Shown piece after piece: positions 10,552 to 60,820 of a stretch of DNA of 64,000 bases; the first letter of the stretch is position 1, and each line of letters begins with the position of its first letter. This DNA is from Rhodospirillaceae bacterium (GTDB taxonomy: Bacteria > Pseudomonadota > Alphaproteobacteria > Reyranellales > Reyranellaceae), in assembly GCA_009772935.1 (NCBI GenBank), contig WOUR01000015.1, positions 36,970 through 100,969 of the forward strand. Direction: 5' to 3'. Under the pieces are notes generated by a model, which was given only the letters and a program-made list of their open reading frames with translations, was not told the origin of the DNA and did not search any database. Position numbers and translations under genes: made by a program.

Positions 10552-11529
10552 ATGACGACACCCCTCCTCAAGGTCGAGAACCTGCGCATCGCGCTGGCCG
10601 GCGACGGCGTCACCTACGATGCCGTCGAGAACGTCTCGTTCGAGATCGGCCGCGGCGAGGCCTTCGGGCTGGTGGGCGAATCGGGCTGCGGCAAGAGCAT
10701 CACGGCGCTGTCGGTGATGGGCCTGCTGCGCCGGCCGCTGTCGCTGGCCGGCGGCAAGATCATCCTCGACGGAGAGGAGATCCAGAACGTCTCCGCCGCC
10801 GAGATGCGCCGCCTGCGCGGCAAGCGTATCGCCATGATCTTCCAGGAGCCGATGACGGCGCTCAATCCGCTGTCGCCGGTCGGCCGGCAGATCGCTGAGA
10901 TGTTCGTGCTGCACCAGGGCGCCAACTGGAACGAGGCGATGGACCGCGCCGAGGATGCGCTGCGCCAGGTCCGCGTGCCCTCGCCCGAGCGGCGCATCAA
11001 GGATTATCCGCACCAGCTCTCGGGCGGCATGCGCCAGCGGGTGATGATCGCCATCGCGCTGGCCTGCGGTCCCGACCTGCTGGTCGCCGACGAGCCGACC
11101 ACGGCGCTCGACGTCACGGTGCAGGCCGAGATCATCGACCTGATGGCCGAACTCTGCGCCGCCAAGGGCACGGCCGTGCTGATGATCAGCCACGACCTCG
11201 GCCTGGTCGCCAACATGTGTCAGCGGGTCGCGGTAATGTATGCCGGCCGCATCGTCGAGAGCCAGGTGGCCGACGCGATCTTCGCCACGCCGACCCATCC
11301 CTATACCCAGGGCCTGATCGATTCCCTGCCGCGGCTCGGCGAACGCGCCCGTCGCGGTCGCCAGAAGCTGCGCGAGATCTCGGGCGTCGTGCCCTCGATC
11401 GCCAATTACCCGTCCGGTTGCCGGTTCAATCCGCGCTGCCCCGCCGTCACCGACGTCTGCCGCACCATCGTGCCCGAGGCCACGCCGTTGCCGGCCGACG
11501 GCCTCGTGAGGTGCCATCACCATGGCTGA
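10552..11529 (+). CDS. ABC transporter ATP-binding protein (OppD-like)
   Basis: [40 protein letters not shown]. Confidence 0.95.
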
Positions 11530-47480: not shown

Positions 47481-50375
47481 CTACCACGTCACGCGGAGCC
47501 CCGCGCGAAGTGTCTGCGCCGTGGAGGACGAGCCGATCGCCGCCTGCCATCCGGCAAAGAAGGCCACGCCATCCTCGAGGGCGAAATCGGCGGAAAGACC
47601 CACCAATACCGAATCCGGCGAGATCGGCGCGCTGGTCGACGCAAAAGGCACCGCGGGGGCAGCAGCGAAGGCCGCCTGCGTAGTCGCCGACACGTCGGCG
47701 AATTCGTGCGCCCAACCGAGCAACCCGCGCAAGGCGAGCGAGCGCTGGTCGGCCAGCATGAGAGTCCGGTTCACCGGCAGCGTCAGGGTGCCGCGCAGGC
47801 TGGTAAGCGACTGCCCGTCGATCTCCTGGGCAAGTCCGTTGCTGTTCTGCTCGACGGTGCGCGGCGAGGAGAATCCCGCTGCAGCGAACCCCACCGTGGG
47901 TTCCACCGCCCAACCCTCCCAGGCCAATCGCAACCCTGCGGCGACCTGACCACCCACCCCGGTCGTCACGAGACTGTCCCGCGAGACGCTGTTCCACGCT
48001 CCCAGCGGACGGGTCGTGGTCTGATCGACGCGCAGATAGGACGCCTGGCCGCCGACGAAGAATGATCCGGCGGTGTACTCACCGTAGACCGTTGCCTGCA
48101 TCGCCGATCCGAGGGCCGTCGCACCGTTGCCGGCGAAGGTGTTTGCGCTGCCGCCTCCCAGAGCGACCCCACCGACGAAGCCCGGCGCCAGCTCCACATC
48201 GAGCCCCGCCATCACGCCGGCAAGCGACGATTGGAAGCCCGGGGCGGCCGCCGCGGCGACCTGCGTCCACTGCCCGAAGCCCGAGAGCCAGGCCGTCGTG
48301 CCAAGCGGCCCCGCCACCGTGTTGGGCGCGGCGTTGGGCAGTCCCCCGCAGGCATCGCCACAGGCCATGGCAATGTCTTGGCCACCGCCCTGTCCGGTAC
48401 GGCGGGTGCCCAGCCGCTGGCTGACCTGATCTGCAAAGCCGTAGAAGCCCTGACGTGCCGACAGGATCATGTCGCCATAGAGGCTGGGCGAAAGCTGATC
48501 CAGTGCCTGCGGGATCGATGCGGCCGGCAGGCTGTAGAGCGGCGCGAAGAGCGACTGCGCAAGGCCGCTCATCCGCACGCCTGCCGCGGGACGAAGCACG
48601 TCGAGCGCTTGCCCGACCGAGGCCTGGCTGGCCGTCTGAGGCAGGCCGGCGGCACCGAGGTTGCCGTAGGAAGCGGGCGTTACCACCAGCGAAACAGAGG
48701 ACGGCGCATAAAGAGCATCGAAACGCGTTCCCGCCCCCAAACCGGCCGGCTGGGTAAGGCCGGCGAAGCTTCCCTGCACGCCGCCCTCGGCCGCGACGAC
48801 CATGAACTGCTGCCCGATGGACGGCGTGAAGCTGTTGGTCGCGGCGCCGGTGATGCCGCGCAGGACCGGCTGCAACGTGCCGCCGGCGGTGAAGCCGTTG
48901 CCTGCACCCGACACCACCACGCGGCTGAAGTTGCCGGCCCCGTTGCCGGTTGCCGTTCCGTCGATATCGAGGGAGAGCGTGCTGGCCGCCGCCATGACCA
49001 CCGGCGCGCCGAAAGTGAGGGTTCCCGGGCTGTTGCCCGGCGCCAGCGTGCCACCGCCCAGCACCGTGGTAGCGCCCCGGATCGTTCCCGTGCCCCGGAG
49101 CGTGCCTTGCGCAGAGACCGGCGAGACGATCAAACCATCAACGGACAGGGCGGCGCCGGCCTCGATCGTCGTGATACCGGTATAGGTGCTGTTTCCGGCG
49201 AAGGTGACGCTTCCGCCAAGTCCGCTGTTGGCGATGATGAGGTTGCCCGGCGTACCGGGCACCGCATCGGAGAGCACGCCGGTCAGGACAGCCGCGTTGC
49301 CGCGCAGGTCGAGGCGGTTCGTGGCCGATCCGTCGACCAGGAAATTCCGGCTGTTGACGCCGAAGGTCTCGTCGACCTGGAGCGTGCCGCCGGTGAAGGC
49401 CGGGATGACGGTCGATCCGACATTGCTCAGGAAATAGGTCTGCCCCGCAGCGATGGTCGAAACCGGCATGATGCTGGCCGTTGTCGGAGCGCCGACAGGG
49501 CCGGACAGGGTGTAGGCCCTAAGGGCCATGTTGCCAGTCGTGGCATCTCCCGTGATCTGGCCCGAAAGACTGTCGTACGTCACCCCGAACAGCAGGTTGA
49601 AGAAGAGGTTTCCCTCGGGTGTCATCGAGCCCAGCACGGTAAAATTGCCAACCAGGCTGTCGAGCGGTGCGGCGCCGACGCCCCAGTAGTATCCGTTGCT
49701 GTAGCCCGTGATCTTGAAGGTGCCGGGCGTCGCCGTGCCGAACACGGTGGGGCTCGAGACCTGCCAGGTGGTGCCGGCGGTCCAGCGCCATTCCGGGGAG
49801 GTGATGTCGGCGCTGATATACTGCGTCGGCGAAGGCGGCGTGAACACGGCCGGATTGTAGGGCGCCATGTAGGCCCAGTGCGTGACCAGCAGCGAGGTGC
49901 CGGTGATCATCTGCATTTCCATCAGCGGCACGCCGCCGATTTCCCGCATCTGGCCGATGCCCACGATGGTCGCGCTGTCTGGAGACGTGAATTCGATCCG
50001 GATCTGCCCTGTCTCGGTCACGAGTCCATGCATGGCCGAGAAGGTGGGCGGCGTGACGGTCGGACCGATGGCGAACGTCGCCGCGCTCTGCCCGGTGAAC
50101 GAGCCGTTGGTGACGGTTCCCAGGGACCACAGGGTCTGGTCGCCGATCGAAAAGGGATTGGTGATGTTACTCCGGTTGCCGCTCGCGTAGGCGACCAGGT
50201 TGGGGATCGCCACGTACCAGTTCGTGTTGGACAGAAGCGCGTCCCAGCGCGTGTCCTGCGCGGACGCGGTTGCCGTCGAGGATACGACACTGGCCAGGAC
50301 CAATGCCGACAGGCGCGCGCCTCTTCCCGTACCCCTTGCGCTCCTGCGGCGCCTCCCGCTACGCGACGCGTCCAC
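47481..50375 (-). CDS. autotransporter (type Va) with passenger, beta-strand repeat and C-terminal beta-barrel
   Basis: Signal peptide; TFAGNSTYTGITTIEAG repeat; GWAHEF; C-terminal GLRVTW; start approximate. Confidence 0.9.
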   Translation of the reverse strand: MDASRSGRRRRSARGTGRGARLSALVLASVVSSTATASAQDTRWDALLSNTNWYVAIPNLVAYASGNRSNITNPFSIGDQTLWSLGTVTNGSFTGQSAATFAIGPTVTPPTFSAMHGLVTETGQIRIEFTSPDSATIVGIGQMREIGGVPLMEMQMITGTSLLVTHWAYMAPYNPAVFTPPSPTQYISADITSPEWRWTAGTTWQVSSPTVFGTATPGTFKITGYSNGYYWGVGAAPLDSLVGNFTVLGSMTPEGNLFFNLLFGVTYDSLSGQITGDATTGNMALRAYTLSGPVGAPTTASIMPVSTIAAGQTYFLSNVGSTVIPAFTGGTLQVDETFGVNSRNFLVDGSATNRLDLRGNAAVLTGVLSDAVPGTPGNLIIANSGLGGSVTFAGNSTYTGITTIEAGAALSVDGLIVSPVSAQGTLRGTGTIRGATTVLGGGTLAPGNSPGTLTFGAPVVMAAASTLSLDIDGTATGNGAGNFSRVVVSGAGNGFTAGGTLQPVLRGITGAATNSFTPSIGQQFMVVAAEGGVQGSFAGLTQPAGLGAGTRFDALYAPSSVSLVVTPASYGNLGAAGLPQTASQASVGQALDVLRPAAGVRMSGLAQSLFAPLYSLPAASIPQALDQLSPSLYGDMILSARQGFYGFADQVSQRLGTRRTGQGGGQDIAMACGDACGGLPNAAPNTVAGPLGTTAWLSGFGQWTQVAAAAAPGFQSSLAGVMAGLDVELAPGFVGGVALGGGSANTFAGNGATALGSAMQATVYGEYTAGSFFVGGQASYLRVDQTTTRPLGAWNSVSRDSLVTTGVGGQVAAGLRLAWEGWAVEPTVGFAAAGFSSPRTVEQNSNGLAQEIDGQSLTSLRGTLTLPVNRTLMLADQRSLALRGLLGWAHEFADVSATTQAAFAAAPAVPFASTSAPISPDSVLVGLSADFALEDGVAFFAGWQAAIGSSSTAQTLRAGLRVTW

Positions 50376-51653: not shown

Positions 51654-51911
51654 TTCCCCCCCCGTCGATTCACCCGAATCGCAGGAGTGTAGCCCGTTCC
51701 GGTCCAGGCGGGACCGCCGGGATTTCGCCCGGCGGCAACTGAATGGCCGCCAGCCCGCCCGCTGTTCGTCGACGATATCGTCCATACTGAGACGGTGAAA
51801 TTCGTCCTGCTGGCCAATCCCCGCAGCCCCTCCATAGGACACTTCATGAAGTGCCCCACAGGAATCGATCCGGAAGACGCACGGGAACTCGAAGGGCGGT
51901 GCGTCCGGCAG

Positions 51912-52853
51912 CTAGCCGGCTTTCAGACGGGCGGCCACTCGCCGCATCGTTCGCCGCCTGAGTTGGCGGCGCGCCCACATCCATGTCCCGGTCACGATCA
52001 GACCAGCCAGGATGATCGAGGTGACCACGTTCATCAGGGCCGACCATGCGCCGGCGAAATTGCCTTCGTGCCAGAGTCTCGGCCAGTTGCGCGGCAAGGC
52101 GACCGTCCCTTGGGGCGTGATCGCATAAAGGCGATATTCCCCACCCTCCGCGAGACGCGCCACCATGCGGCCGCCCAGGGAGCGCAGCCATACCAATGTC
52201 GAGAGATCATGGCGTTCGCCGACGACGCGCACCGCCTCGGCGAGAGTCACTGCGGGGCCGCGGGTCGACGGGGCGTTCCCGGCTGGCGTGGCAAGGGTGA
52301 TGCCGAACGCCAAACAGAGGCCGGTCAGCGGCGACAGCAGGATTAAGGGTAGCACGCCCCAGGCCATGCCCTTGTGCCACCCGGAAAGGGTATTCGACAC
52401 GCGGGGCACGCCCAACAGCAGGCCGAGGATGGCGACGGCCAGCATCGCCACCGTCGAACTCACGACCAGCCAGCCTGCATCGATCAACAGCTTCTCGTGC
52501 AGGCGCCTTGTCAGGCCAAGCACCATTGCCAGGGACGACGGCGCGGGCAGCAACTCGCCAGTCGCGACATCGACGACTTTCCCGGCGTTGCGCGCGATGC
52601 TGATCGTGACGGTGCGATCGTAGCTGCGATACGCCAGCATTTGCGCCTGGCCGCTCGGGTCGTGCCGGCCGAGCAGGGCGGTGACCCGGTCGCTCGTGAG
52701 GGACTTCGGCCCAATGGACTCGACGACCAGCCAGGGCTCGAAGGAAAGGATCAAGCCGCTCGCGACAACCAGGAGAAGCGGAAGCGCGAAGAGGAGCGCG
52801 ATCCATCTGTGCAGTTTGAGGAGCCTGGCCTTCACGCAATATCTCCGCGACAC
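51912..52853 (-). CDS. PepSY-associated TM helix domain protein
   Basis: KLHRWIALLF..PL...ASG; RRLHEKLL; WHK; RLWHEG. Confidence 0.8.
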   Translation of the reverse strand: MSRRYCVKARLLKLHRWIALLFALPLLLVVASGLILSFEPWLVVESIGPKSLTSDRVTALLGRHDPSGQAQMLAYRSYDRTVTISIARNAGKVVDVATGELLPAPSSLAMVLGLTRRLHEKLLIDAGWLVVSSTVAMLAVAILGLLLGVPRVSNTLSGWHKGMAWGVLPLILLSPLTGLCLAFGITLATPAGNAPSTRGPAVTLAEAVRVVGERHDLSTLVWLRSLGGRMVARLAEGGEYRLYAITPQGTVALPRNWPRLWHEGNFAGAWSALMNVVTSIILAGLIVTGTWMWARRQLRRRTMRRVAARLKAG

Positions 52854-53009
52854 GATGCCCGCTCTTCTCGCCCGAACCGGCCAACGCCATCAAGACGCGG
52901 TTCGTTGCTGCAAGGTAAAGAATCGTGAAGCGGACTCAGCACCGATGGAGAAATCGTGGCCCGGTCGATAGTGACCAGGTGCGGCACGCGAGGTTAAGTC
53001 CTGGCCGCG

Positions 53010-53810
53010 TCATTCCCTTTCTCCGCGTTCAGCGCCGTCGGCGTCCTGGAAGCGCGAGAAGACGTCGCGCAACAGGTCCGGCGCCGTCCGTGCAGGGACG
53101 CGCGACGGCACCTCGTCGGCGTACCGCAGTGCATAGACGAGAGGCATCCAGGACACGCCCGCGTCCTCGCTGTCGGCCAGCAACAACGCCCGCGAGGGGC
53201 GCGCCGGAAGCGCGACCGTCTCGATGGTATCGGGTGCAGGCGACACGCACTTGGCCGCGGGTGAGGTGACGAGATATTGCCGGCAACTGAGCGGCCGGTC
53301 GGGATGGATGGAACAGGCCTCGTTCTCGAGAAACGGGCAGGCAACGCCTTGCCGGAAGTAGCGCATGCCGAGACCGGCGGTCGAATCAGTTACTTCCTCT
53401 CTCGCGGCGTCGATCTCTCTGGTCACGCCACCGGAATGAAGCGTCTGCAATGCCGCGGCGAAGCGGCGTCGAATCTCTTCGCGCCGCGGCCCCGGCATGG
53501 CGGCGACCAGCGCGGCGAGTGCGCGCGCTTCGGCTTGCGATATCGGCACGAGCTGGCGGCAACAGGCTCCGCAGCCCGCGCGGCAGGAGATGGTGCGCCC
53601 CGCTGACTCGGCGACCTCGACACCCCGGTTGACCACGAAATCGGTCAACCCCTGCAAGATCGGCAGCACGTCCTCGAAGCCGATGGGGCCGGAAGGCACG
53701 GCCATTTCGAGCGTGACCGGCTCCCCGCCGAGAACCAGCACGACCCGTCCGACGACCAGCGCGTCACGCGCCGGGTCGCCTGCCAGAAGCTGCAGCGTCG
53801 CTTCGCTCAA
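53010..53810 (-). CDS. YkgJ family Cys-cluster (putative Fe-S/Zn) protein
   Basis: CRAGCGACC, CPFL..EACSIHPDRPLSCR; TTG start overlapping the upstream stop. Confidence 0.85.
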   Translation of the reverse strand: MSEATLQLLAGDPARDALVVGRVVLVLGGEPVTLEMAVPSGPIGFEDVLPILQGLTDFVVNRGVEVAESAGRTISCRAGCGACCRQLVPISQAEARALAALVAAMPGPRREEIRRRFAAALQTLHSGGVTREIDAAREEVTDSTAGLGMRYFRQGVACPFLENEACSIHPDRPLSCRQYLVTSPAAKCVSPAPDTIETVALPARPSRALLLADSEDAGVSWMPLVYALRYADEVPSRVPARTAPDLLRDVFSRFQDADGAERGERE

Positions 53811-54109
53811 CGCCGCTGGGGCGACGGGGTGGCGGTCGCCGGGCCGGTCGTGGAGGGCAGCGCGGTGGAGGCGCCCGCCTTGTCGGTGCGGCAGTACTTG
53901 TCGCCCTTGTACTCGACCAGTGTCCCCTTGCCGGCGACGCAGGCATTGGATGACGCCAAATCCCTGATGTCTATTTTCTGGAAGTTGAAGGAATTGGGAA
54001 GAGCGTCCATCTTCAAGTAGATTGGGTCCGCCGCTTGCGCTGGCACGATGACTGTTCCCAGGTCGAAGGCGACCGCGCCCATCATGATGAGGCCGAGTTC
54101 CTTGCGCAT
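53807..54109 (-). CDS. hypothetical secreted protein (Cys pair, Thr/Pro-rich tail)
   Basis: Signal peptide ending AQA; GGAGAG RBS. Confidence 0.6.
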   Translation of the reverse strand: MRKELGLIMMGAVAFDLGTVIVPAQAADPIYLKMDALPNSFNFQKIDIRDLASSNACVAGKGTLVEYKGDKYCRTDKAGASTALPSTTGPATATPSPQRR

Positions 54110-54131
54110 GTTGCTCTCTCCTTGCTGGCGA

Positions 54132-54590
54132 TCAGCGGATTGCGGGTCTCTGCCCTGATGGCGATTCGAGTGACACGGCCTCGCGGCAGACCTTCTGACC
54201 GTTGGCCATCGCCACCATCACGGGCTTGACGGTAACATTGTATGTCGACGTCGCCGCTGTCTGATTGGAGACACCGACCGGATACTTGACGGTGAAGGAA
54301 TAGTTGCCGGCATTGTTCAGCCGGATTGGCACTTCCTCGCCGGCATGGAGGAGGCCCATCATCTGGTCATGCACGACCTGCTGGTTTGCGACGTTGGTGA
54401 AGATGAACCGGTAGGTTGTCGTATTCGGTCCGACCTTGACGAGGATGTTGTAAGCATTGCCGTGGCGCATGAAGCACCCGGCCTGGAAACCGAGTATCTG
54501 CGGGTTCGGCGCCTGTGCTTCTGCCGTCGCCGGCGCCAAGGCAAGCATCGCCACGCCCGGTAACGCGGCCGAAAAGATCCTGAAAAGCAT
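54132..54590 (-). CDS. hypothetical secreted beta-rich protein (two Cys)
   Basis: Signal peptide ending AEA-Q; alternating hydrophobic pattern. Confidence 0.6.
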   Translation of the reverse strand: MLFRIFSAALPGVAMLALAPATAEAQAPNPQILGFQAGCFMRHGNAYNILVKVGPNTTTYRFIFTNVANQQVVHDQMMGLLHAGEEVPIRLNNAGNYSFTVKYPVGVSNQTAATSTYNVTVKPVMVAMANGQKVCREAVSLESPSGQRPAIR

Positions 54591-54686
54591 GGGCCCCCAC
54601 TCGTCACGCCATGGCAGCGTGACCCGGCAATAGTTGCATATAACGTGAGTGTTTTGTTAGTCCGAATAGCGGCGTTTTCAGGCCGC

Positions 54687-55793
54687 TCACGTCAAGCCCG
54701 CCCTGTGGGCGCACGCCAGGGCCAGCTGCCATTTGGCCCGAAACTCAAGGCATTCCGGCGCAAGCGCGTGCGCCCGGCCATACCAGCTTGCGCTCTCCCC
54801 GTATCGCTCCGCCCGGAAGAGCGAAAGTCCGGCTTCCGCCAGAGCACCAGCGCCAAGGATATTCCTGTCGTAGGCGAATTCGCCGACCAGTGTATCGGCA
54901 TCGATGGCAGCCAGCCGCTCGAAGATCTCGAGAGCCTCGTGCCAGCGGTGCAGGGCAGCGAGCGCCCGCGCCTCCAGACAATCGAGCAGGAGATTGTTCC
55001 CCAGCAACGAGCGTGTTTCACCGATCAGATCGAGCGCCTCGCCGCTCGCGCCTGCGACCAGCCTCTGCCTGGCCAGTTCGGTGAAACACAGCGATTGCTC
55101 CGCCAGCCGACGCGGCGATCGGCGTGCTGCCTCGATGCCCGAATGCCAGGCCCGCTCGGCTTCCGGCAGGCAACCCTTCTCGAGATGGATCGAACCGAGA
55201 TGCCACCAGAGATAGGACCGGTCCGGATCGATCTTCACCTGGCGCGCCAACATGGCCAAGTCGCGCTCGTGCTTGCGGACCGACCCTCCATCATAGCCCA
55301 GGTGATCGATCGTGAGGTCCGTACAGCCCATGGCGCCGCCTTCCCTGTCGACCAGCCGCCCAAGCGAGGGCACGATCGTCTCGTGGAATGCCCCCTCGAA
55401 TCGAATGTCGGGATGGCGTCGGAACAGGCGCAGCTCGCGATAGGCCGTAAGGCCGGTCTGCGGATAGAAGCGCAGACGGGCCGCGCGCAAACTTGGAGCA
55501 GCGAGCTCGTGGTCGAGCATTGCGCGCGTGTACGGGCGAATGCGCTCATCGGCATCGATCTGTAGAATCCAATCGCCGGACGCCCGGTCGAGCGCGAAGT
55601 TGCGCGCCGCGGCGAAATCCTCGCGCCAGACGAAGTCGTGAAGTGTCGCGCCACGGTCAAGCGCAATGGCACGCGTGCGGTCGGTCGATCCGGTATCGAC
55701 GACCACGATCTCGTCGGCGAAGCCTTGCAACGAGTCGAGACAGTCGGGGAGGAATTTCTCTTCGTTCCGGACGATCAGGGTTGCCGAAAGCAT
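54687..55793 (-). CDS. GT2 glycosyltransferase with C-terminal TPR-like helices
   Basis: IVRNEE..L..CLDSL, DEIVVVDTGSTDRT, DFAAARN, DADE (DxD), HLGY; helical repeats after. Confidence 0.9.
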   Translation of the reverse strand: MLSATLIVRNEEKFLPDCLDSLQGFADEIVVVDTGSTDRTRAIALDRGATLHDFVWREDFAAARNFALDRASGDWILQIDADERIRPYTRAMLDHELAAPSLRAARLRFYPQTGLTAYRELRLFRRHPDIRFEGAFHETIVPSLGRLVDREGGAMGCTDLTIDHLGYDGGSVRKHERDLAMLARQVKIDPDRSYLWWHLGSIHLEKGCLPEAERAWHSGIEAARRSPRRLAEQSLCFTELARQRLVAGASGEALDLIGETRSLLGNNLLLDCLEARALAALHRWHEALEIFERLAAIDADTLVGEFAYDRNILGAGALAEAGLSLFRAERYGESASWYGRAHALAPECLEFRAKWQLALACAHRAGLT

Positions 55794-55831
55794 TCCTTGG
55801 CGTCCAACGGCAGCGCGTCGCCAACAGCGGC

Positions 55832-56101
55832 TTAGCGCTTGGCCGGCTCGTTCGCTCTGCCGGTATTGCCGGGAATCGCCGGATCGCCCTGCTTGCTCGC
55901 ACCGCCCGGATTGGAGCGAATGACCGCGTCACCCACGCCGTTGAAGGTCCGGATCGGGTTCTGGGTCTCGGCGAGAGCATCCATCGGAAAGGAGGCCACG
56001 GCCGGCAGCACGAAGGCGCTGTTCAGCAGGAGCTTGCGGAGAAGGTCACGTCGCGATTTGTCGACGCTGGCCAACACGCGAGGATCGATACCGTCTTCCA
56101 T
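55832..56101 (-). CDS. small twin-arginine-leader peptide; candidate RiPP precursor or modified secreted peptide
   Basis: MEDGIDPRVLASVDKSRRDLLRKLLLNSAFVLPAVASFPMDALA followed by a polar Gly/Pro/Asn tail; lies between kinase and GT2. Confidence 0.7.
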   Translation of the reverse strand: MEDGIDPRVLASVDKSRRDLLRKLLLNSAFVLPAVASFPMDALAETQNPIRTFNGVGDAVIRSNPGGASKQGDPAIPGNTGRANEPAKR

Positions 56102-56114
56102 GGACACATTCGTA

Positions 56115-56936
56115 TCAAAGGAGGCCCCTCATCGCAATGACGGCCGACTCCGGATCGCCCAGTTCGACGAGGCAGGTGCGGGCCCCGTCCAGCATGCGGG
56201 CGATGTCACCGATCCATTGCCCCCGTGCCGACGGCGGCGCCGTCGCCTGCGCGAGCAGGCGGCGGGCCATGTCGAGCTTGCCCGTTTCGATCACCCGACT
56301 CCGCGAGCCATGGTTCGCCTCGAGGTAGAAAACCGCGGAAACGGTCGCGGCTGCGATGTTCCAGTTTCTGCCGAAGTCGGTTGGATCGACGGGAAACCAC
56401 CAGTCGCGTGCCGAAGCCCCCTTGCGGGCGACGACGACGGGAAGATCCCGCAGTTGCGGCAGCAAGGCCACGCTGGGCTCGTTCACCCTGAACCGCCAGG
56501 GAAAGGCCATCGCCTGGCCATCGGCCACCAGCACGAGATCGTCGCCGCTCACGTCGTAGCCCTCGAACAGCAAGCGTAGGGCGAGCGTCGTCTTTCCCGA
56601 GTTTCGAGGCCCGGCGATGAGGAAACTCCCGCCGGCAGCTCGCCCGATGGCCGCTCGCAACCGGACATGGTCGGGCAAGGCGGCCAGTGCGTCGCGATGC
56701 ATCCGCCGAAGAAGATTCTCGGCGGCATAGAAGGCGGTCAGTTCGAAGTCGTCGCCGTCCGACCCGCCGCTGATCCTGAATTCGCCGTCGAGTTGCCGGG
56801 CGGCGAGCGTAAGGCGCCGCAGGATGGCCATTGCCTGGTGGGGCGACGGCGCTGCTTCCCGCAGGCGACGGCGTACGTCGTCGCACTCCGTGTCGATCGT
56901 GAACTCCGTGGCAAGGAGCTGGATTCGATCGGACAC
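56115..56936 (-). CDS. HPr kinase (HprK)-related P-loop kinase
   Basis: LIAGPRNSGKTT Walker A, SGDDLVLV, FPWRF; 1-nt gap to pqqD. Confidence 0.72.
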   Translation of the reverse strand: MSDRIQLLATEFTIDTECDDVRRRLREAAPSPHQAMAILRRLTLAARQLDGEFRISGGSDGDDFELTAFYAAENLLRRMHRDALAALPDHVRLRAAIGRAAGGSFLIAGPRNSGKTTLALRLLFEGYDVSGDDLVLVADGQAMAFPWRFRVNEPSVALLPQLRDLPVVVARKGASARDWWFPVDPTDFGRNWNIAAATVSAVFYLEANHGSRSRVIETGKLDMARRLLAQATAPPSARGQWIGDIARMLDGARTCLVELGDPESAVIAMRGLL

Positions 56937-56937
56937 G

Positions 56938-57207
56938 TCAGCCGATCAGGCCTTCGCGTGTGAGCGTCTCCAGGCAGGTCGCGACCGCCTCGATCGGCGG
57001 TTCCGCGAGATCGAACGCCAGTTGCAGCAACTCGGGAAGATCGCCGACGGAATTCCGGCCGTTGCACAACTCGAGGACGACGGCCGCCGTCGCATTGAGA
57101 TAATGGATGCGATCGCGAGCCGGCTGATAGACTATGTAGCCGTCGGCGACGGGATTGATCTCGAGGCCGGATACGGAAGATGGGCATTCGAGCGAGCGCA
57201 TGGGCAT
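56938..57207 (-). CDS. stand-alone PqqD family / RiPP recognition element (RRE) protein
   Basis: GYIVYQPARDRIHYLNATAAVVLELCNGRNSVGDL...LETLTREGLI; only the last ~89 aa of track ORF 56938..58206. Confidence 0.85.
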   Translation of the reverse strand: MPMRSLECPSSVSGLEINPVADGYIVYQPARDRIHYLNATAAVVLELCNGRNSVGDLPELLQLAFDLAEPPIEAVATCLETLTREGLIG

Positions 57208-57270
57208 CGACGGAAGGATGCCCAAGCCCCTATCGGATGGCAAGGTTCGGGGGGACCGGTAACCGTGCCG

Positions 57271-58800
57271 ATGACACGCGACGAACTGGCAACTGCGCTG
57301 AGAGCGGCTGCTGCGTCGCGGGAAGACTTTCCCGAGGATCGTTTCGACGGACGCGGCATCGTCATCTGTGCCGGCGGCGCGCGAATGTTCACCTGCGCCT
57401 GGATATGCATCGGCATGTTGCGGCGCCTCGGTTGCACCCTGCCGATCGAGGTATGGCACCTCGGGAGCGAGGAGATGGGGCCGCCGATGCGCGGCTTGCT
57501 CGCCGAACTCGGCGCCGAGACGATCGATGCGCATGAAGTCGCCAAGCATCACGCCGTCCGCAGGCTCGGCGGCTGGGAACTCAAGCCCTACGCCCTTCTT
57601 CATTCGCGCTTCCGCCAAGTGCTGTTGCTCGATGCGGACAACGTGCCCGTGAAGGATCCGACCGGACTTTTCGACGATCCGGGTTTCCGCGAGACGGGCG
57701 CGATGTTCTGGCCGGATCTGCTGCGCCTGTCGCGCAGCAACGCGATCTGGGCCATCGCCGGCCTGGAGCGCCGCGACTGCGTGTCCTTCGAGTCCGGGCA
57801 GCTTCTGCTCGACAAGTCGAGATGCTGGCGGGCGCTGTTGCTCGCCCACTGGATGAACCAGCGGTCCGAGGACTTCTACGGTATCCTCCACGGCGACAAG
57901 GACACGTTCCTCATCGCCTGGCTGATGCTGGGGCAGCGCCATCATCTCATTCCACACCAGCCCAAGCAGCTCGAGGCGACGATTTGCCAGCGCGGTCCCG
58001 ACGGCAGCATCCTCTTCCAGCATCGCAACGGCGCGAAGTGGGTACTGAGAGGGATCAATCCGGCCATTGAGGGTTTTCGGCGGGAAGCCGACTGTTTTGC
58101 GCTGCTCGCAGACCTCGACGAAAGATGGGACGGCTATGTCTTCAACCCGCCGGGGCGTTCCGGCGCGGCCAAGGCGCTGGAGCGCGGTCTCGCCGCAGTC
58201 CGCCACTTCCGCTACGTTCGCGTTTCATCCGACGAGCGCCGGGTGGAACTGCTGGCCGACCATCGAATCGGTGGTGCCGGCGGCGATGAATTCTACTGGT
58301 ATGTGACCGAGATCGACGCTTCGCCGGTGCTGGTCCTGGCCGGGAACGGCGCAAGCAGCAACCGGCTTCGCCTCGATCCCGATGGCGTGTGGCGCGGTCG
58401 GCTGCCCTACGGCCCCGGCACGCCCGTCGAGCTGGTCCCGCTGACGCCTGGCGCCGTCGCCGTCGCCGTCCGACAGGCGCCGGCGACCGGACAGTGCTTC
58501 GTGCGTGCCCTCCTCGAGCGCGCGTTCGCTGCCTACGAGTCGCTGCCTCGTGATCGGGAGACGACCCGCGATTTCATGGGCTTCCTGCGCACACTCTCGA
58601 TCCTCGATCCCACGGTCAAGGACGATCTGGCCCTGTCGGCGCCCGGCGAGGTCGGAGAAAAGCGCCGCCAGATGATCTCGCTCGCACTCGATGGATGGGC
58701 AGACCATGTCCAGCGACCGGACGGCAGCGGCGGCATCTCGTCGGGCCACGGCTGGAACCGGCATTCCTTCCCGCTCGCGGGTTATGACCCTGCCTCCTGA
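57271..58800 (+). CDS. GT71 (Mannosyl_trans3; Mnn1/Mnn2-like) glycosyltransferase with C-terminal extension
   Basis: RGIVICAG, LPIEVW, KPYALLHSRFRQVLLLDADN, FWPD, ESGQLLLDK, GDKDTF. Confidence 0.85.
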   Translation: MTRDELATALRAAAASREDFPEDRFDGRGIVICAGGARMFTCAWICIGMLRRLGCTLPIEVWHLGSEEMGPPMRGLLAELGAETIDAHEVAKHHAVRRLGGWELKPYALLHSRFRQVLLLDADNVPVKDPTGLFDDPGFRETGAMFWPDLLRLSRSNAIWAIAGLERRDCVSFESGQLLLDKSRCWRALLLAHWMNQRSEDFYGILHGDKDTFLIAWLMLGQRHHLIPHQPKQLEATICQRGPDGSILFQHRNGAKWVLRGINPAIEGFRREADCFALLADLDERWDGYVFNPPGRSGAAKALERGLAAVRHFRYVRVSSDERRVELLADHRIGGAGGDEFYWYVTEIDASPVLVLAGNGASSNRLRLDPDGVWRGRLPYGPGTPVELVPLTPGAVAVAVRQAPATGQCFVRALLERAFAAYESLPRDRETTRDFMGFLRTLSILDPTVKDDLALSAPGEVGEKRRQMISLALDGWADHVQRPDGSGGISSGHGWNRHSFPLAGYDPAS

Positions 58801-59563
58801 ACAAGCCCGCCTCCTCGTCCTCACGCCCGTCAAGGATGCGACGCGCCACCTCGACCTCTATTGGCACAACCTCGCGAAGCTGACCTACCCGGCCAAGGCG
58901 ATCTCGGTCGGATTGCTGGAGAGCGACAGCCGGGACGACACATTCGAGCGGCTTCGCAACAGGCTGGGCGAATTGCGCGCCCGCTACGCGGACGTGGGAC
59001 TCTGGAAGAAGGATTTCGGCTTTCGGATGCCGGAGGACGTCCCGCGCTGGAGCCACCCCTGGCAACTCGAACGCCGGCGCGTGCTCGCAAAGGCCCGCAA
59101 TCATCTCCTCTTCCGGGCAATGGCCGATCACGATTGGATCCTCTGGCTCGATGTCGATGTGGTCGAGTATCCGGCCGACCTTCCACAGCGCCTGATTTCT
59201 ACCGGCCGCGGCATCGTGCATCCCCATTGCGTCCATGACTATGGTGGCCCCACCTTCGACCGCAACGGCTGGCGCGAGCAGGGTCTCGTCCACATGGATG
59301 CGCTGCGCGGCGGACCCGACCTTGTCCGCCTCGACAGCGTCGGCGGAAGCGTGCTGCTGGTGCGCGCCGACATCCATCGCGACGGCCTGATCTTCCCGCC
59401 TTTTCCCTATGGCAAGGGTCATCCCGCCGTGCGCCGGCCTGGACCGTGGGGAGCGCAGATGGAAGGGGAAATCGAAACCGAAGGCCTCGGCATCATGGCG
59501 ACCGAGATGGGACACCAGTGCTGGGGCATGCCCAACCTGGAAGTCCTGCACGCCCGGAACTGA
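58784..59563 (+). CDS. GT62 (Anp1/Mnn9/Van1-like) glycosyltransferase
   Basis: LTYP, KKDFG, ARNHLL, WILWLDVDVVEYP, DSVGG..LLVRADIHRDG..FP, IETEG, GMPN..VLH. Confidence 0.88.
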   Translation: MTLPPEQARLLVLTPVKDATRHLDLYWHNLAKLTYPAKAISVGLLESDSRDDTFERLRNRLGELRARYADVGLWKKDFGFRMPEDVPRWSHPWQLERRRVLAKARNHLLFRAMADHDWILWLDVDVVEYPADLPQRLISTGRGIVHPHCVHDYGGPTFDRNGWREQGLVHMDALRGGPDLVRLDSVGGSVLLVRADIHRDGLIFPPFPYGKGHPAVRRPGPWGAQMEGEIETEGLGIMATEMGHQCWGMPNLEVLHARN

Positions 59564-60810
59564 TGCCGCGGCGGCGGCTTCTCCAGGTGACTCCGGTCAT
59601 GCCGGCTCCCACCGGCGGCGGCCTCGCGATGCGTGCGGCCTCGACGCTGAAGGCCCTGTCGCGTCATTTCGATGTCGACCTGCTCGTCGTGCCGGTCGCC
59701 GGCGCGGCCACGATACCCTCGGATTTCGTTCTCCGGCATGCGGCGACGGTCCAGTGCCTGGACCTGGAGGGCCATCTGGATCCGCACTTCGCCCTGATCG
59801 CCCGCCTGAAGGATCCCGCGCATCGGGAGCAGGCCCTGCGCGCCTATCCCAAGCCCCATCTCAGCCGCTACTGCACCGGCGACGGCGCCCGGTACCTCTA
59901 CCAGTGGCGCGACCGGCGAGCGGTCGCGGCCATACACGTCATGCGTCTCTACCTGGCGCCCTTCGCCGACCTGTTCCTGCGTCTCCCGGACGGCGAACGG
60001 CCGCTCTGCGTCCTCGATCTCGATGACGACGAGCCCCTGACGCGACGCCGCCTGGCCGATCTCCACCTCAGGCGGGGCGACCGCGAGAGCGCCGAACGGG
60101 AACAGAGCGAGCTGCGGAAATACGCCGCCTTCGCCGCTCGGTACCTGCCGGCCTTCGATCGTGTCACGGTCTGCTCCACCACCGACGCGGATCGCCTGGC
60201 CCGGCAGCACACTCGCGCGCGCTTCGCGGTCGTGCCGAACGGCTATGACATGGAGAAGGTGAACCGGCCTACGCCGTCGGCGTCCGGCCCGCTTCGCCTG
60301 CTGTTCGTCGGCACCCTCGACTACTTTCCCAACAGCGACGCCGCGCGCTTCCTCTGCACAGACGTTGGCGAGGCGCTGCACCGCCTTTCGGACCGTGAAA
60401 TGGAGATCGACATCGTCGGCAGCGGCGGCGACGGACTGGCCGGCGACCTCGACGACAGCGGCGCGCGTGTCCACGGTTATGTGCCGAGCGTCACCCCTTT
60501 CTACGCGGCAGCAGACGTCGCCATCATCCCGATTCGTGCCGGCGGCGGCACGCGCATCAAGATCCTGGAAGCGTTCGCCCATCGCGTCCCCGTCGTCAGC
60601 ACGACGATCGGCGCGGAAGGGCTCGACGCGATCGACGGCCAGCACCTGCTTGTCGGCGACGATGCCGAAAGCCTTGCCCGCGCCTGCCTTCGGGTGAAAT
60701 CGTCGCCGGCACTTGCCCACTCCCTTGCGGAGCAGGCCGCGGCCCTGTGCTCGGCGTCGCATGGCGCGGCTGCCATCGAGAAGGCGATCGGCGACGTCTA
60801 TCGCCTGTAG
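59563..60810 (+). CDS. GT4 glycosyltransferase
   Basis: VVPNG, LFVGTLDYFPN.DA, GGGTRIKILEAFA..VPVVST.IGAEG; 1-nt overlap with the upstream stop. Confidence 0.92.
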   Translation: MPRRRLLQVTPVMPAPTGGGLAMRAASTLKALSRHFDVDLLVVPVAGAATIPSDFVLRHAATVQCLDLEGHLDPHFALIARLKDPAHREQALRAYPKPHLSRYCTGDGARYLYQWRDRRAVAAIHVMRLYLAPFADLFLRLPDGERPLCVLDLDDDEPLTRRRLADLHLRRGDRESAEREQSELRKYAAFAARYLPAFDRVTVCSTTDADRLARQHTRARFAVVPNGYDMEKVNRPTPSASGPLRLLFVGTLDYFPNSDAARFLCTDVGEALHRLSDREMEIDIVGSGGDGLAGDLDDSGARVHGYVPSVTPFYAAADVAIIPIRAGGGTRIKILEAFAHRVPVVSTTIGAEGLDAIDGQHLLVGDDAESLARACLRVKSSPALAHSLAEQAAALCSASHGAAAIEKAIGDVYRL

Positions 60811-60820
60811 CGACGCGGAG

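Follow-up and report, generated by a model that had tools for sequence, protein, structure and literature searches.

A candidate Tat-leader peptide-modification cassette with RRE, HprK-like kinase and glycosyltransferase genes in a Rhodospirillaceae bacterium

Seven closely packed genes were analyzed in a 64,000-nt stretch of contig WOUR01000015.1 of Rhodospirillaceae bacterium GCA_009772935.1. This stretch is called the window, and all positions refer to it. The genes encode a stand-alone PqqD-family recognition element (RRE) for peptides that are made by ribosomes and modified after translation (RiPPs), an HprK-like P-loop protein, a small peptide, a glycosyltransferase (GT) of family GT2 fused to tetratricopeptide repeats (GT2-TPR) and three further GTs of the families GT71, GT62 and GT4. 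The preferred reading, to which a probability of about 0.62 is given, is that of a horizontally mobile and self-contained peptide-modification cassette. As predicted from the sequences, the peptide would undergo RRE-guided phosphorylation/glycosylation in the cytoplasm, its glycan would be extended by the other GTs, and the product would be exported by twin-arginine translocation (Tat) with cleavage by signal peptidase I.

The precursor peptide and its leader family

A 58-position leader profile was searched against 1.84 billion representative proteins; 978 clusters reached E ≤ 1e-3, of which 259 reached E ≤ 1e-10. The leader is always N-terminal in the proteins of the 978-cluster family, which are 54-329 aa long, and it lies outside all Pfam and NCBIfam models. 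The window peptide matches the profile at E = 1.5e-26 and is the sole member of the family in its genome. Its homolog P0038 starts at the position of its ATG.

Column statistics were taken from the best 150 members. These carry L at column 10 (137 members), V and D at columns 13-14 (103 and 126), S at 16 (74), R or K at 17 (98 and 51), R at 18 (148), F and L at 20-21 (84 and 112), basic residues at 22-23 (R/K22, K23), G at 27 (120), A at 29 (127) and F or Y at 30 (136 and 11). Further downstream follow P at 33 (all 150), V or I at 35 (102 and 28), S and F at 37-38 (143 and 149), M at 40 (110), G and L at 42-43 (124 and 122) and an A-x-A at columns 48 and 50 (118 and 116). Column 54 is N in 109 of 111 aligned members, and column 56 is T or S in 57 of 83.

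The family leader reads as a predicted Tat signal, joining the consensus S-R/K-R-x-F-L-K to a hydrophobic h-region and an A-x-A predicted signal-peptidase site. The aromatic-x-x-P-x-hydrophobic box inside the h-region appears to be of the type bound by the RREs of lasso peptides and of the linear polyphosphorylated peptides (LPP; genes lppAKBSDN) found in Bacillota (Popov et al., Nat Commun 2026, PMC13381572). Residues +3 to +6, counted from the predicted mature N-terminus, form a fixed putative modification box; here the family has a near-invariant Asn four residues past A-x-A, usually as S-N-x-T/S.

On the family numbering the window peptide has R17-R18, F30, P33, V35, S37-F38 and N54, and its A-x-A is A42-L-A44. 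The Tat-like features of the peptide are in place, namely the motif S-R-R-D-L-L-R-K, a hydrophobic stretch and A-L-A followed by E. TatC is encoded in the genome (225 bits), so that the family motif, the A-x-A and the translocase together support a predicted Tat signal; the curated Tat models all stay below their thresholds.

Pairwise identity amounts to 37% in the leader and 24% in the core, which varies in length from 7 to about 180 residues. The conserved leader, the hypervariable core and the F/YxxPxV box of lasso/LPP type give the peptide a precursor-like character. A precursor of this kind together with a PqqD-like winged helix-turn-helix RRE would place the predicted system among the RiPPs. 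Tandem precursors are found in some relatives, with three copies carrying cores of 15-17 residues in locus L021 and two in L060. The window core contains no Cys, and the leader is not of the double-glycine type.

Recurrence of the cassette in other genomes

Related loci were searched with the kinase alignment minus its three most distant rows. The core of PqqD/RRE, HprK-like kinase, small peptide and GT2-TPR was found in about 20 loci with differing flanks, which belong to Alphaproteobacteria, one "Deltaproteobacteria" metagenome-assembled genome (MAG) and Actinomycetota. GT2-TPR is present in every related locus, and GT71, GT62 and GT4 join the core in most proteobacterial copies. The identical seven-gene order occurs between unrelated flanks in L009, L011/L012 and L015-L017 (a 1.8-Mb JGI contig and several Reyranella-like MAGs). 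The same families in rearranged order were found in L010/L018, L014, L019-L021, L023, L028-L031, L055 and L060. At 39-44% kinase identity (L010/L018, L014, L019 and L023) the set is complete but rearranged, and some of these sets are enlarged by NodZ, GT10, methyltransferases, a second PqqD or tandem kinase paralogs. The Bradyrhizobium carriers (L021, L028-L031) include two cultured strains. In Actinomycetota (Acidimicrobiia, Microthrixaceae; L013, L024-L027) the four-gene core is accompanied by GT4, GT32 and a PF14907 nucleotidyltransferase in place of GT71/GT62. PF14907 (NTP_transf_5) was found in the relatives L025 and L060 and is absent from the window cassette. The loci L032-L040 were left out of the count, as only the P-loop segment is common to them and none of the other genes.

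With the leader profile, one to three leader-bearing open reading frames (ORFs) were detected in every evaluable PqqD-kinase-GT2-TPR locus, across two phyla. In the reciprocal test, which started from leader matches, the same enzymes were found in three of four evaluable contexts, and one further contig was too short. The peptide had been expected beforehand to stay beside RRE and kinase homologs, and it does so whether the search starts from the kinase or from the leader. Since synteny holds in both directions, PqqD, kinase, precursor(s) and GT2-TPR can be regarded as the conserved unit, to which variable extending GTs are added.

Several relatives show further peculiarities. In L010/L018 (an Alphaproteobacteria MAG, 972-kb contig) three tandem kinase paralogs are present, one of them apparently frameshifted, and a PqqD-Methyltransf_21 fusion adjoins the stand-alone PqqD. 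The putative substrate of this locus is a 229-aa protein consisting of the leader and pentapeptide repeats full of N-L-T/N-L-S. At the edge of the metagenome GT62/GT71 cassette L060, a 746-aa NTP_transf_5-radical SAM fusion is encoded (L060:8023-10263, minus strand).

Organization of the locus and assignment of the enzymes

The seven genes form two divergent arms (Table 1). The gaps in the left arm measure 38 nt between GT2-TPR and peptide, 13 nt between peptide and kinase and 1 nt between kinase and PqqD. In the right arm GT71 and GT62 overlap by 17 nt if the ATG at 58784 is taken as the GT62 start, and the GT62/GT4 overlap reads TGATG. All seven reading frames are intact, and the catalytic motifs are conserved according to the translations and the family alignment. 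Number, order, spacing and family assignment of the genes are thereby as the sequence-only reading had given them (ORF lists, translations, Pfam). No sigma-70 consensus was found in the spacer between the arms, which is uninformative for this organism.

Table 1. Features of the cassette and of its possible accessory gene; positions refer to the window.
Feature	Position	Strand	Description
GT2-TPR (GT-A domain and C-terminal TPR)	54687-55793	-	Proposed peptide-priming glycosyltransferase; ORF list and translation, Pfam
Precursor peptide, 89 aa	55835-56101	-	Stop codon 55832-55834; alternative GTG at 56107 gives 91 aa
Leader, residues 1-44	55970-56101	-	L..VD box, S16-R17-R18, F30-x-x-P33-x-V35, S37-F38, A-L-A44
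Core, 45 residues	55835-55969	-	N54 codon 55940-55942 in R-T-F-N-G-V
P-loop protein of HprK/PEPCK-like fold, 273 aa	56115-56936	-	Proposed peptide kinase; predicted fold, hhalign
Stand-alone PqqD-family RRE, 89 aa	56938-57207	-	Pfam PqqD
Divergent intergenic spacer, 63 bp	57208-57270		Separates left and right arms
GT71-type (Mannosyl_trans3), 509 aa	57271-58800	+	Pfam PF11051; no membrane segment
GT62-type (Anp1/Mnn9), about 259 aa	58784-59563	+	Pfam Anp1; no membrane segment
GT4 (GT-B) glycosyltransferase	59563-60810	+	Pfam Glyco_trans_1_4
Possible accessory eighth gene, secreted 152-aa protein with Sec signal	54132-54590	-	[VI]-S-N-Q-[TS] box; homologs beside other cassettes

The PqqD protein matches its Pfam family at 5.5e-8 (33.5 bits, cut-off 23.4). 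A profile of 15 orthologs has its best PDB match, nearly full length, in the lasso RRE TfuB1 (6jx3_B, E = 6.9e-4), ahead of PqqD itself.

An AlphaFold model of the P-loop protein, built from 15 homologs, reached a pLDDT of 91.1, and Foldseek placed this predicted model next to ATP-dependent PEPCK (E = 1e-5) and HprK/P (E = 5e-5), which share one P-loop fold. A comparison of the family with the genome's own HprK by hhalign gave 94% probability (E = 1.5e-7) over the Walker-A and the following Asp segment, and a 30%-identical homolog matches Hpr_kinase_C at 1.6e-5. Invariant in the family are G114, K115, T117 and G131-D132. The label 'HprK-like' is the weakest part of the assignment and is supported indirectly, by the predicted fold, the hhalign comparison and this homolog. 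Homologs are rare, with 23 in 5.8 billion proteins; weak P-loop matches aside, 24 congeners were all without the subfamily, and so were 400 sampled Pseudomonadota. When the kinase was compared with PDB sequences, both as a single sequence and as a profile, only generic P-loops were returned. The precomputed label 'ScmC' (PF27840) on distant homologs could not be traced in the literature or in the Pfam copy searched; the ESM Atlas ties it to clusters of 'HprK-related kinase A'. A second HprK-like protein is encoded elsewhere in the genome (C119:54138-54308, L062:931-2091; frame of about 387 aa, Hpr_kinase_C 35.9 bits), and hhalign matches it with 83 columns of the kinase profile of the cassette (93.7%).

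The GT2-TPR protein matches Glycos_transf_2 at 2.3e-17 and TPR_2 at 9.6e-6, the latter with 25.8 bits just below the Pfam cut-off of 27 bits. Against the NCBIfam SunS model TIGR04195 (1.6e-12, 47 bits, cut-off 350) the GT domain alone aligns, and the protein does not rank as a SunS equivalog. Its sequence matches in the PDB are GmaR (2.5e-25), the ThuS-type 7msk (6.4e-11) and SunS (1.3e-9). These nearest solved relatives are all protein or peptide glycosyltransferases, in agreement with the type proposed earlier for this enzyme.

GT71 matches Mannosyl_trans3 (PF11051) at 1.9e-36 and has no sequence relative in the PDB; its orthologs are 56-67% identical in the nearest cassettes and 37-41% in the Bradyrhizobium-type loci. 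GT62 matches Pfam Anp1 at 3.5e-47 and yeast Mnn9 (3zf8) at 7.6e-23. For GT4, Glyco_trans_1_4 was found at 4e-21, and the best NCBIfam model is the GT of the PEP-CTERM/XrtA system, TIGR03087 (5.6e-27, under the cut-off). By hydropathy all six enzymes lack a membrane segment.

With GTs encoded by four of the seven genes and a GT4 that resembles those of exopolysaccharide systems, a glycosyltransferase island for exopolysaccharide or lipopolysaccharide has to be weighed, in which PqqD, the P-loop protein and the small ORF would be unrelated passengers. The LPP and paeninodin clusters themselves sit in capsule loci. Such a plain polysaccharide locus is nevertheless very improbable, because the genes for initiation, flipping, polymerization and export are missing and because the small ORF, PqqD and the P-loop gene accompany GT2-TPR in different phyla, also where GT71/GT62 are absent. 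Neither the cassette nor its flanks contain an initiating phosphoglycosyltransferase, a flippase, a polymerase, a chain-length regulator, an exporter or a sugar-nucleotide gene. Likewise, Wzx/Wzy or ABC export, an initiating phosphoglycosyltransferase and chain-length control were found neither at 47.5-64 kb of the window nor in the conserved cassettes elsewhere.

Relation to known systems

A lasso cyclase, radical SAM enzyme, YcaO, LanM, peptidase or transporter was found neither in the cassette nor in its immediate flanks (Pfam/NCBIfam). This part of the sequence-only reading stands, whereas the notion of a system without known relatives had to be given up, with LPP as the closest characterized relative. 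The cassette is best explained as a Gram-negative/actinobacterial relative of LPP and of lasso tailoring.

LPP precursors have a conserved YxxP leader and variable bodies of 35-200 aa. Their core starts with A-Q-S-N-W-K, in which S3 is polyphosphorylated by an HprK-like kinase, their RRE presents the cleavage site to a signal-peptidase-type enzyme, and the final product is probably glycosylated (PMC13381572). LPPs are stated to be restricted to Bacillota, and Tat and glycosyltransferases go unmentioned (PMC13381572). Both systems have a discrete PqqD-type RRE, an HprK-like kinase, one to three precursor genes and an aromatic-x-x-P box. They also resemble each other in the signal-peptidase-I-type removal of the leader, which is predicted here, in the glycosyltransferase surroundings, in the patchy distribution and in S-N at core +3/+4 (A-Q-S-N in LppA, family consensus Q-x-S-N here). 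However, the archaeal-type signal peptidase I (SipW-like) LppS, the MsbA-like exporter and the PF14907 transferase are absent from the window cassette and its flanks. Only the F/Y-x-x-P-x-V part of the LPP leader YxxPxVLxHQxIxFETxxS is present here, the rest being a twin-arginine signal. The core of the cassette also includes a SunS/GmaR-like GT2-TPR, along with GT71/GT62, and its hosts are Proteobacteria and Actinomycetota.

The paeninodin and pseudomycoidin systems (kinases PadeK/PsmK; nucleotidyltransferase PsmN) likewise combine an HprK-family kinase with a ribosomal precursor bound by a split-B1 RRE, and among solved proteins the RRE of the cassette is closest to a lasso B1 protein. In pseudomycoidin hexoses are added after HprK-type phosphorylation (PMC6993621). 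In contrast to these lasso systems, neither an Asn-synthetase-like macrolactam cyclase (C) nor a transglutaminase-like B2 peptidase is present in the cassette or in related loci. In addition, the box proposed for modification is at the N-terminal start of the core and not at a C-terminal Ser, and GTs of GT-A and GT-B type replace PsmN.

GT2-TPR shares with SunS, ThuS and GmaR an architecture in which an N-terminal GT2 (GT-A) domain is joined to a substrate-binding domain of helical or TPR type. Glycocins differ from the system described here in their Cys-rich hairpin precursors, double-glycine leaders and C39-ABC exporters, none of which was found, and the cassette has an RRE and a kinase in addition.

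Bufferins are MNIO-modified RiPPs with Sec signal peptides and an RRE-like domain in a partner protein, and their signal is dispensable for modification (PMC11626156). They are comparable insofar as the N-terminus of the precursor is a general-secretion signal and housekeeping machinery serves for export and leader removal, as is proposed for the cassette. They differ in using Sec and not Tat and in their unrelated thiooxazole chemistry; the signal peptide of the cassette precursor, in contrast to their dispensable one, contains the RRE box.

GT62 and GT71 belong to the same families as the fungal Golgi enzymes Mnn9/Anp1 and Mnn1/Mnt2, respectively; the bacterial versions are soluble and lack a membrane anchor. 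In yeast both families together extend and branch protein-linked mannan.

No description of the cassette was found in the literature searched, in which the LPP and pseudomycoidin papers were the nearest returns. New within RRE/HprK-kinase peptide tailoring, as covered by this literature, is the combination of a Tat-signal leader with a set of glycosyltransferases. If the proposed reading is true, a RiPP-style leader doubles as a twin-arginine signal with the RRE box in its hydrophobic core, which would provide a compact route from cytoplasmic peptide modification to the general secretion and processing machinery. The logic of LPP and lasso tailoring would then reach Proteobacteria and Actinomycetota, coupled to classical GTs including homologs of fungal mannan enzymes, and about 1,000 unannotated small-protein clusters would gain a testable function. 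Furthermore, leader-AxA-x-x-S-N-x-T could be used as a transferable tag by which exported proteins are glycosylated or phosphorylated site-specifically in the cytoplasm.

Proposed pathway, acceptor box and cargo

In the proposed pathway, PqqD/RRE would bind F30-x-x-P33-x-V35 in the hydrophobic region of the signal and so hold the precursor in the cytoplasm. The HprK-like kinase and GT2-TPR would be presented by it with the box [Q/A]-x-[S/A/G]-N-x-[T/S], which reads R-T-F-N-G-V in the window peptide, and would act on residues 52-56. GT71, GT62 and GT4 would then assemble an oligosaccharide, which is probably mannose-rich. The bulky product would exit via the general Tat machinery, with the leader being cut off by signal peptidase I. 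Since these general systems would serve, the lack of a dedicated protease and exporter gene is explained. The order of kinase, priming by GT2 and extension by GT71/62/4 is inferred. The acceptor could be the conserved Asn, an adjacent Ser/Thr or a phosphate on one of them.

Of 149 proteins, 92 have an N-x-S/T sequon at 6-30 residues from the S-F-x-M motif, compared with 35 in shuffled tails (maximum 52), and 40 of the 92 are placed at one exact distance from this motif. It is rather doubtful that the conserved Asn, mostly in N-x-T/S, is N-glycosylated in the cytoplasm by a leader-guided GT2-TPR, with extension by GT62/GT71 and Tat export of the folded or bulky product. If true, this would be a lipid-carrier-independent, RRE-targeted N-glycosylation by an enzyme unrelated to OST/PglB and to the HMW1C-type NGT. 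Its targeting tag would be fusible to other cargo, as in the natural fusions to pentapeptide-repeat, PEP-CTERM, S74 and Hint modules.

A second possibility, which is somewhat less doubtful but still not probable, follows the LPP model. Here the HprK-like kinase would (poly)phosphorylate the Ser/Thr beside the Asn, all sugars would be attached via the phosphate, and N-x-T/S would be a recognition feature. The S3 phosphorylated in the LPP core A-Q-S-N has its counterpart at the same positions of the family consensus Q-x-S-N, the hexoses of pseudomycoidin need prior phosphorylation, and actinobacterial and some proteobacterial relatives possess NTP_transf_5 of the PsmN/LppN type. Yet Ser at -1 of the Asn occurs in only about half of the family members and is replaced by F53 in the window peptide. 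Moreover, an S3T variant is not phosphorylated in LPP, whereas the Reyranella-type cores, which share R-T/N-x-N, offer only Thr. Finally, NTP_transf_5 is missing from the window cassette, and the relatives of GT2-TPR glycosylate side chains directly.

The sequence that follows the Asn box differs widely among the members. It consists of nothing (cores of 7-15 residues), of sequon repeats or of pentapeptide-repeat domains rich in N-L-T/S. A PEP-CTERM tail behind a Tat-type leader and Asn box was found in P0039, P0114 and P0156, and IPTL/PEP-CTERM-like tails in P0157 and L014:6847-7158; judged by their domains, these members link the leader family to exosortase-type surface proteins. A self-cleaving Peptidase_S74 module, an intramolecular chaperone, follows a core of 8-12 residues in P0050, P0061, P0099, P0102, P0119 and P0138, and a self-cleaving Hint module a core of roughly 60 residues in P0097. 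Autoproteolytic release or transfer of a short peptide seems possible for these proteins.

Such cargo would also fit a system for protein glycosylation or sorting that is not a RiPP system, in which the leader is a special Tat signal, PqqD a proofreading chaperone that delays export up to the attachment of a glycan, secreted or surface proteins the actual targets of glycosylation and the short peptides minimal carriers. Apart from the same leader heading pentapeptide-repeat, PEP-CTERM, Peptidase_S74 and Hint proteins, the closest solved GT relative GmaR, a protein GT, and the PEP-CTERM/XrtA model of GT4 point this way. This explanation is unlikely, as half of the best-scoring 150 members are shorter than 100 aa, a quarter have at most 65 aa, and cores go down to 7 residues. 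The tandem variable precursors and the lasso/LPP-type RRE box also speak for a RiPP, and the sole substrate in this genome has a single 45-residue core.

Several findings weigh against the reading as a cassette for phosphorylation/glycosylation and Tat export. The P-loop protein passes no Pfam or NCBIfam threshold (HprK_rel_B E = 0.011, HprK_rel_A E = 0.051). The claim of an HprK-like kinase is thus upheld by the fold and hhalign but not by curated models. The HprK_rel_A model gives 12.7 bits (cut-off 200) and PqqD_rel_X 21.3 bits (cut-off 35), so that by equivalog cut-offs the cassette would not be an HPr-rel-A system (NCBIfam TIGR04352/TIGR04353). The leader protein P0050 is an orphan located far from such enzymes. 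The window core keeps N54 but has neither Ser at -1 nor S/T at +2, which is why the peptide may be an atypical or poor substrate; P0038, its closest database relative (75% identical), carries N-Q-T and N-I-T.

Regarding export, about a third of the leaders have K-R instead of R-R. In the Bradyrhizobium branch (L028-L031 at about 10890-11075; P0085) the Arg pair and the hydrophobic stretch are lost, so Tat export is not universal in the family. This branch keeps V-D, P33, S37-F38 (S-F-P-I-D-G) and N54, and ends with G-N-S-Y two residues past the Asn. As only the features for enzyme recognition are retained there, they appear to outlast those for export.

The evidence for transcription is weak as well. 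Four metatranscriptome runs were retrieved with the 4.1-kb left part of the region, and in three of them the mapped contigs cover the precursor gene and little else of the island. They span 55756-56026 at 100% identity, 55818-56055 with one mismatch and 55543-56103 at 92% identity. Selective coverage of this kind would be expected of a highly transcribed precursor, and is at best a weak hint because these are assembled contigs and carry-over of DNA is possible.

Genomic setting and neighboring genes

By the cluster names of the neighboring ArgE-like gene, the genome is that of a Reyranella. Comparison with the closest congeners shows that the cassette lies in an island. The region 51.66-60.82 kb (or 47.4-60.82 kb) is exchanged in them for 0.9-1.7 kb of other DNA, and the right border is located 10 nt past the GT4 stop. 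In the congener loci L052-L054 the place of the island 51661-60820, beside an M20 peptidase gene, is taken by a gene of DgoK-like type with a frame of about 305 aa. The island looks like a replacement and not like a simple insertion. No tRNA or integrase gene was found near it. Near-identical copies of the island are present in aquatic, groundwater and wastewater metagenomes.

The location in a 9-kb strain-specific replacement region, as well as the core R-T-F-N-G-V where P0038 has canonical sequons, could also indicate that the cassette family is real and the window copy decaying or inactive after loss of its acceptor motif. This is improbable, given that none of the seven frames is broken, that the catalytic motifs are conserved and that N54 and the whole leader are kept. 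The near-identical copies in many aquatic and groundwater metagenomes and the precursor contigs in the metatranscriptomes argue for a functional cassette, too.

An autotransporter gene is located near the cassette (47481-50375, minus strand), and one lies directly beside the cassette in Bradyrhizobium sp. McL0616 (L030:3682-6423, minus strand). Autotransporters are classic targets of cytoplasmic glycosyltransferases; the proximity may be a coincidence. A further ORF of 100 aa inside the strain-specific region (53807-54109, minus strand) combines a Sec-type signal peptide with a tail rich in Thr and Pro, and neither a family match nor a homolog in other cassette loci was found for it.

Finally, the gene of the 152-aa protein with a Sec signal lies 96 nt downstream of GT2-TPR. 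The protein belongs to no Pfam family. No homolog is found at this place in L009, L011 and L016, while L015 (12378-12797) and L017 (12384-12803) each carry a 50%-identical homolog immediately downstream of GT2-TPR. Its invariant box [VI]-S-N-Q-[TS] coincides with the consensus box in the cores of the Tat-leader family, and the secreted protein could be another substrate or could partner the product.

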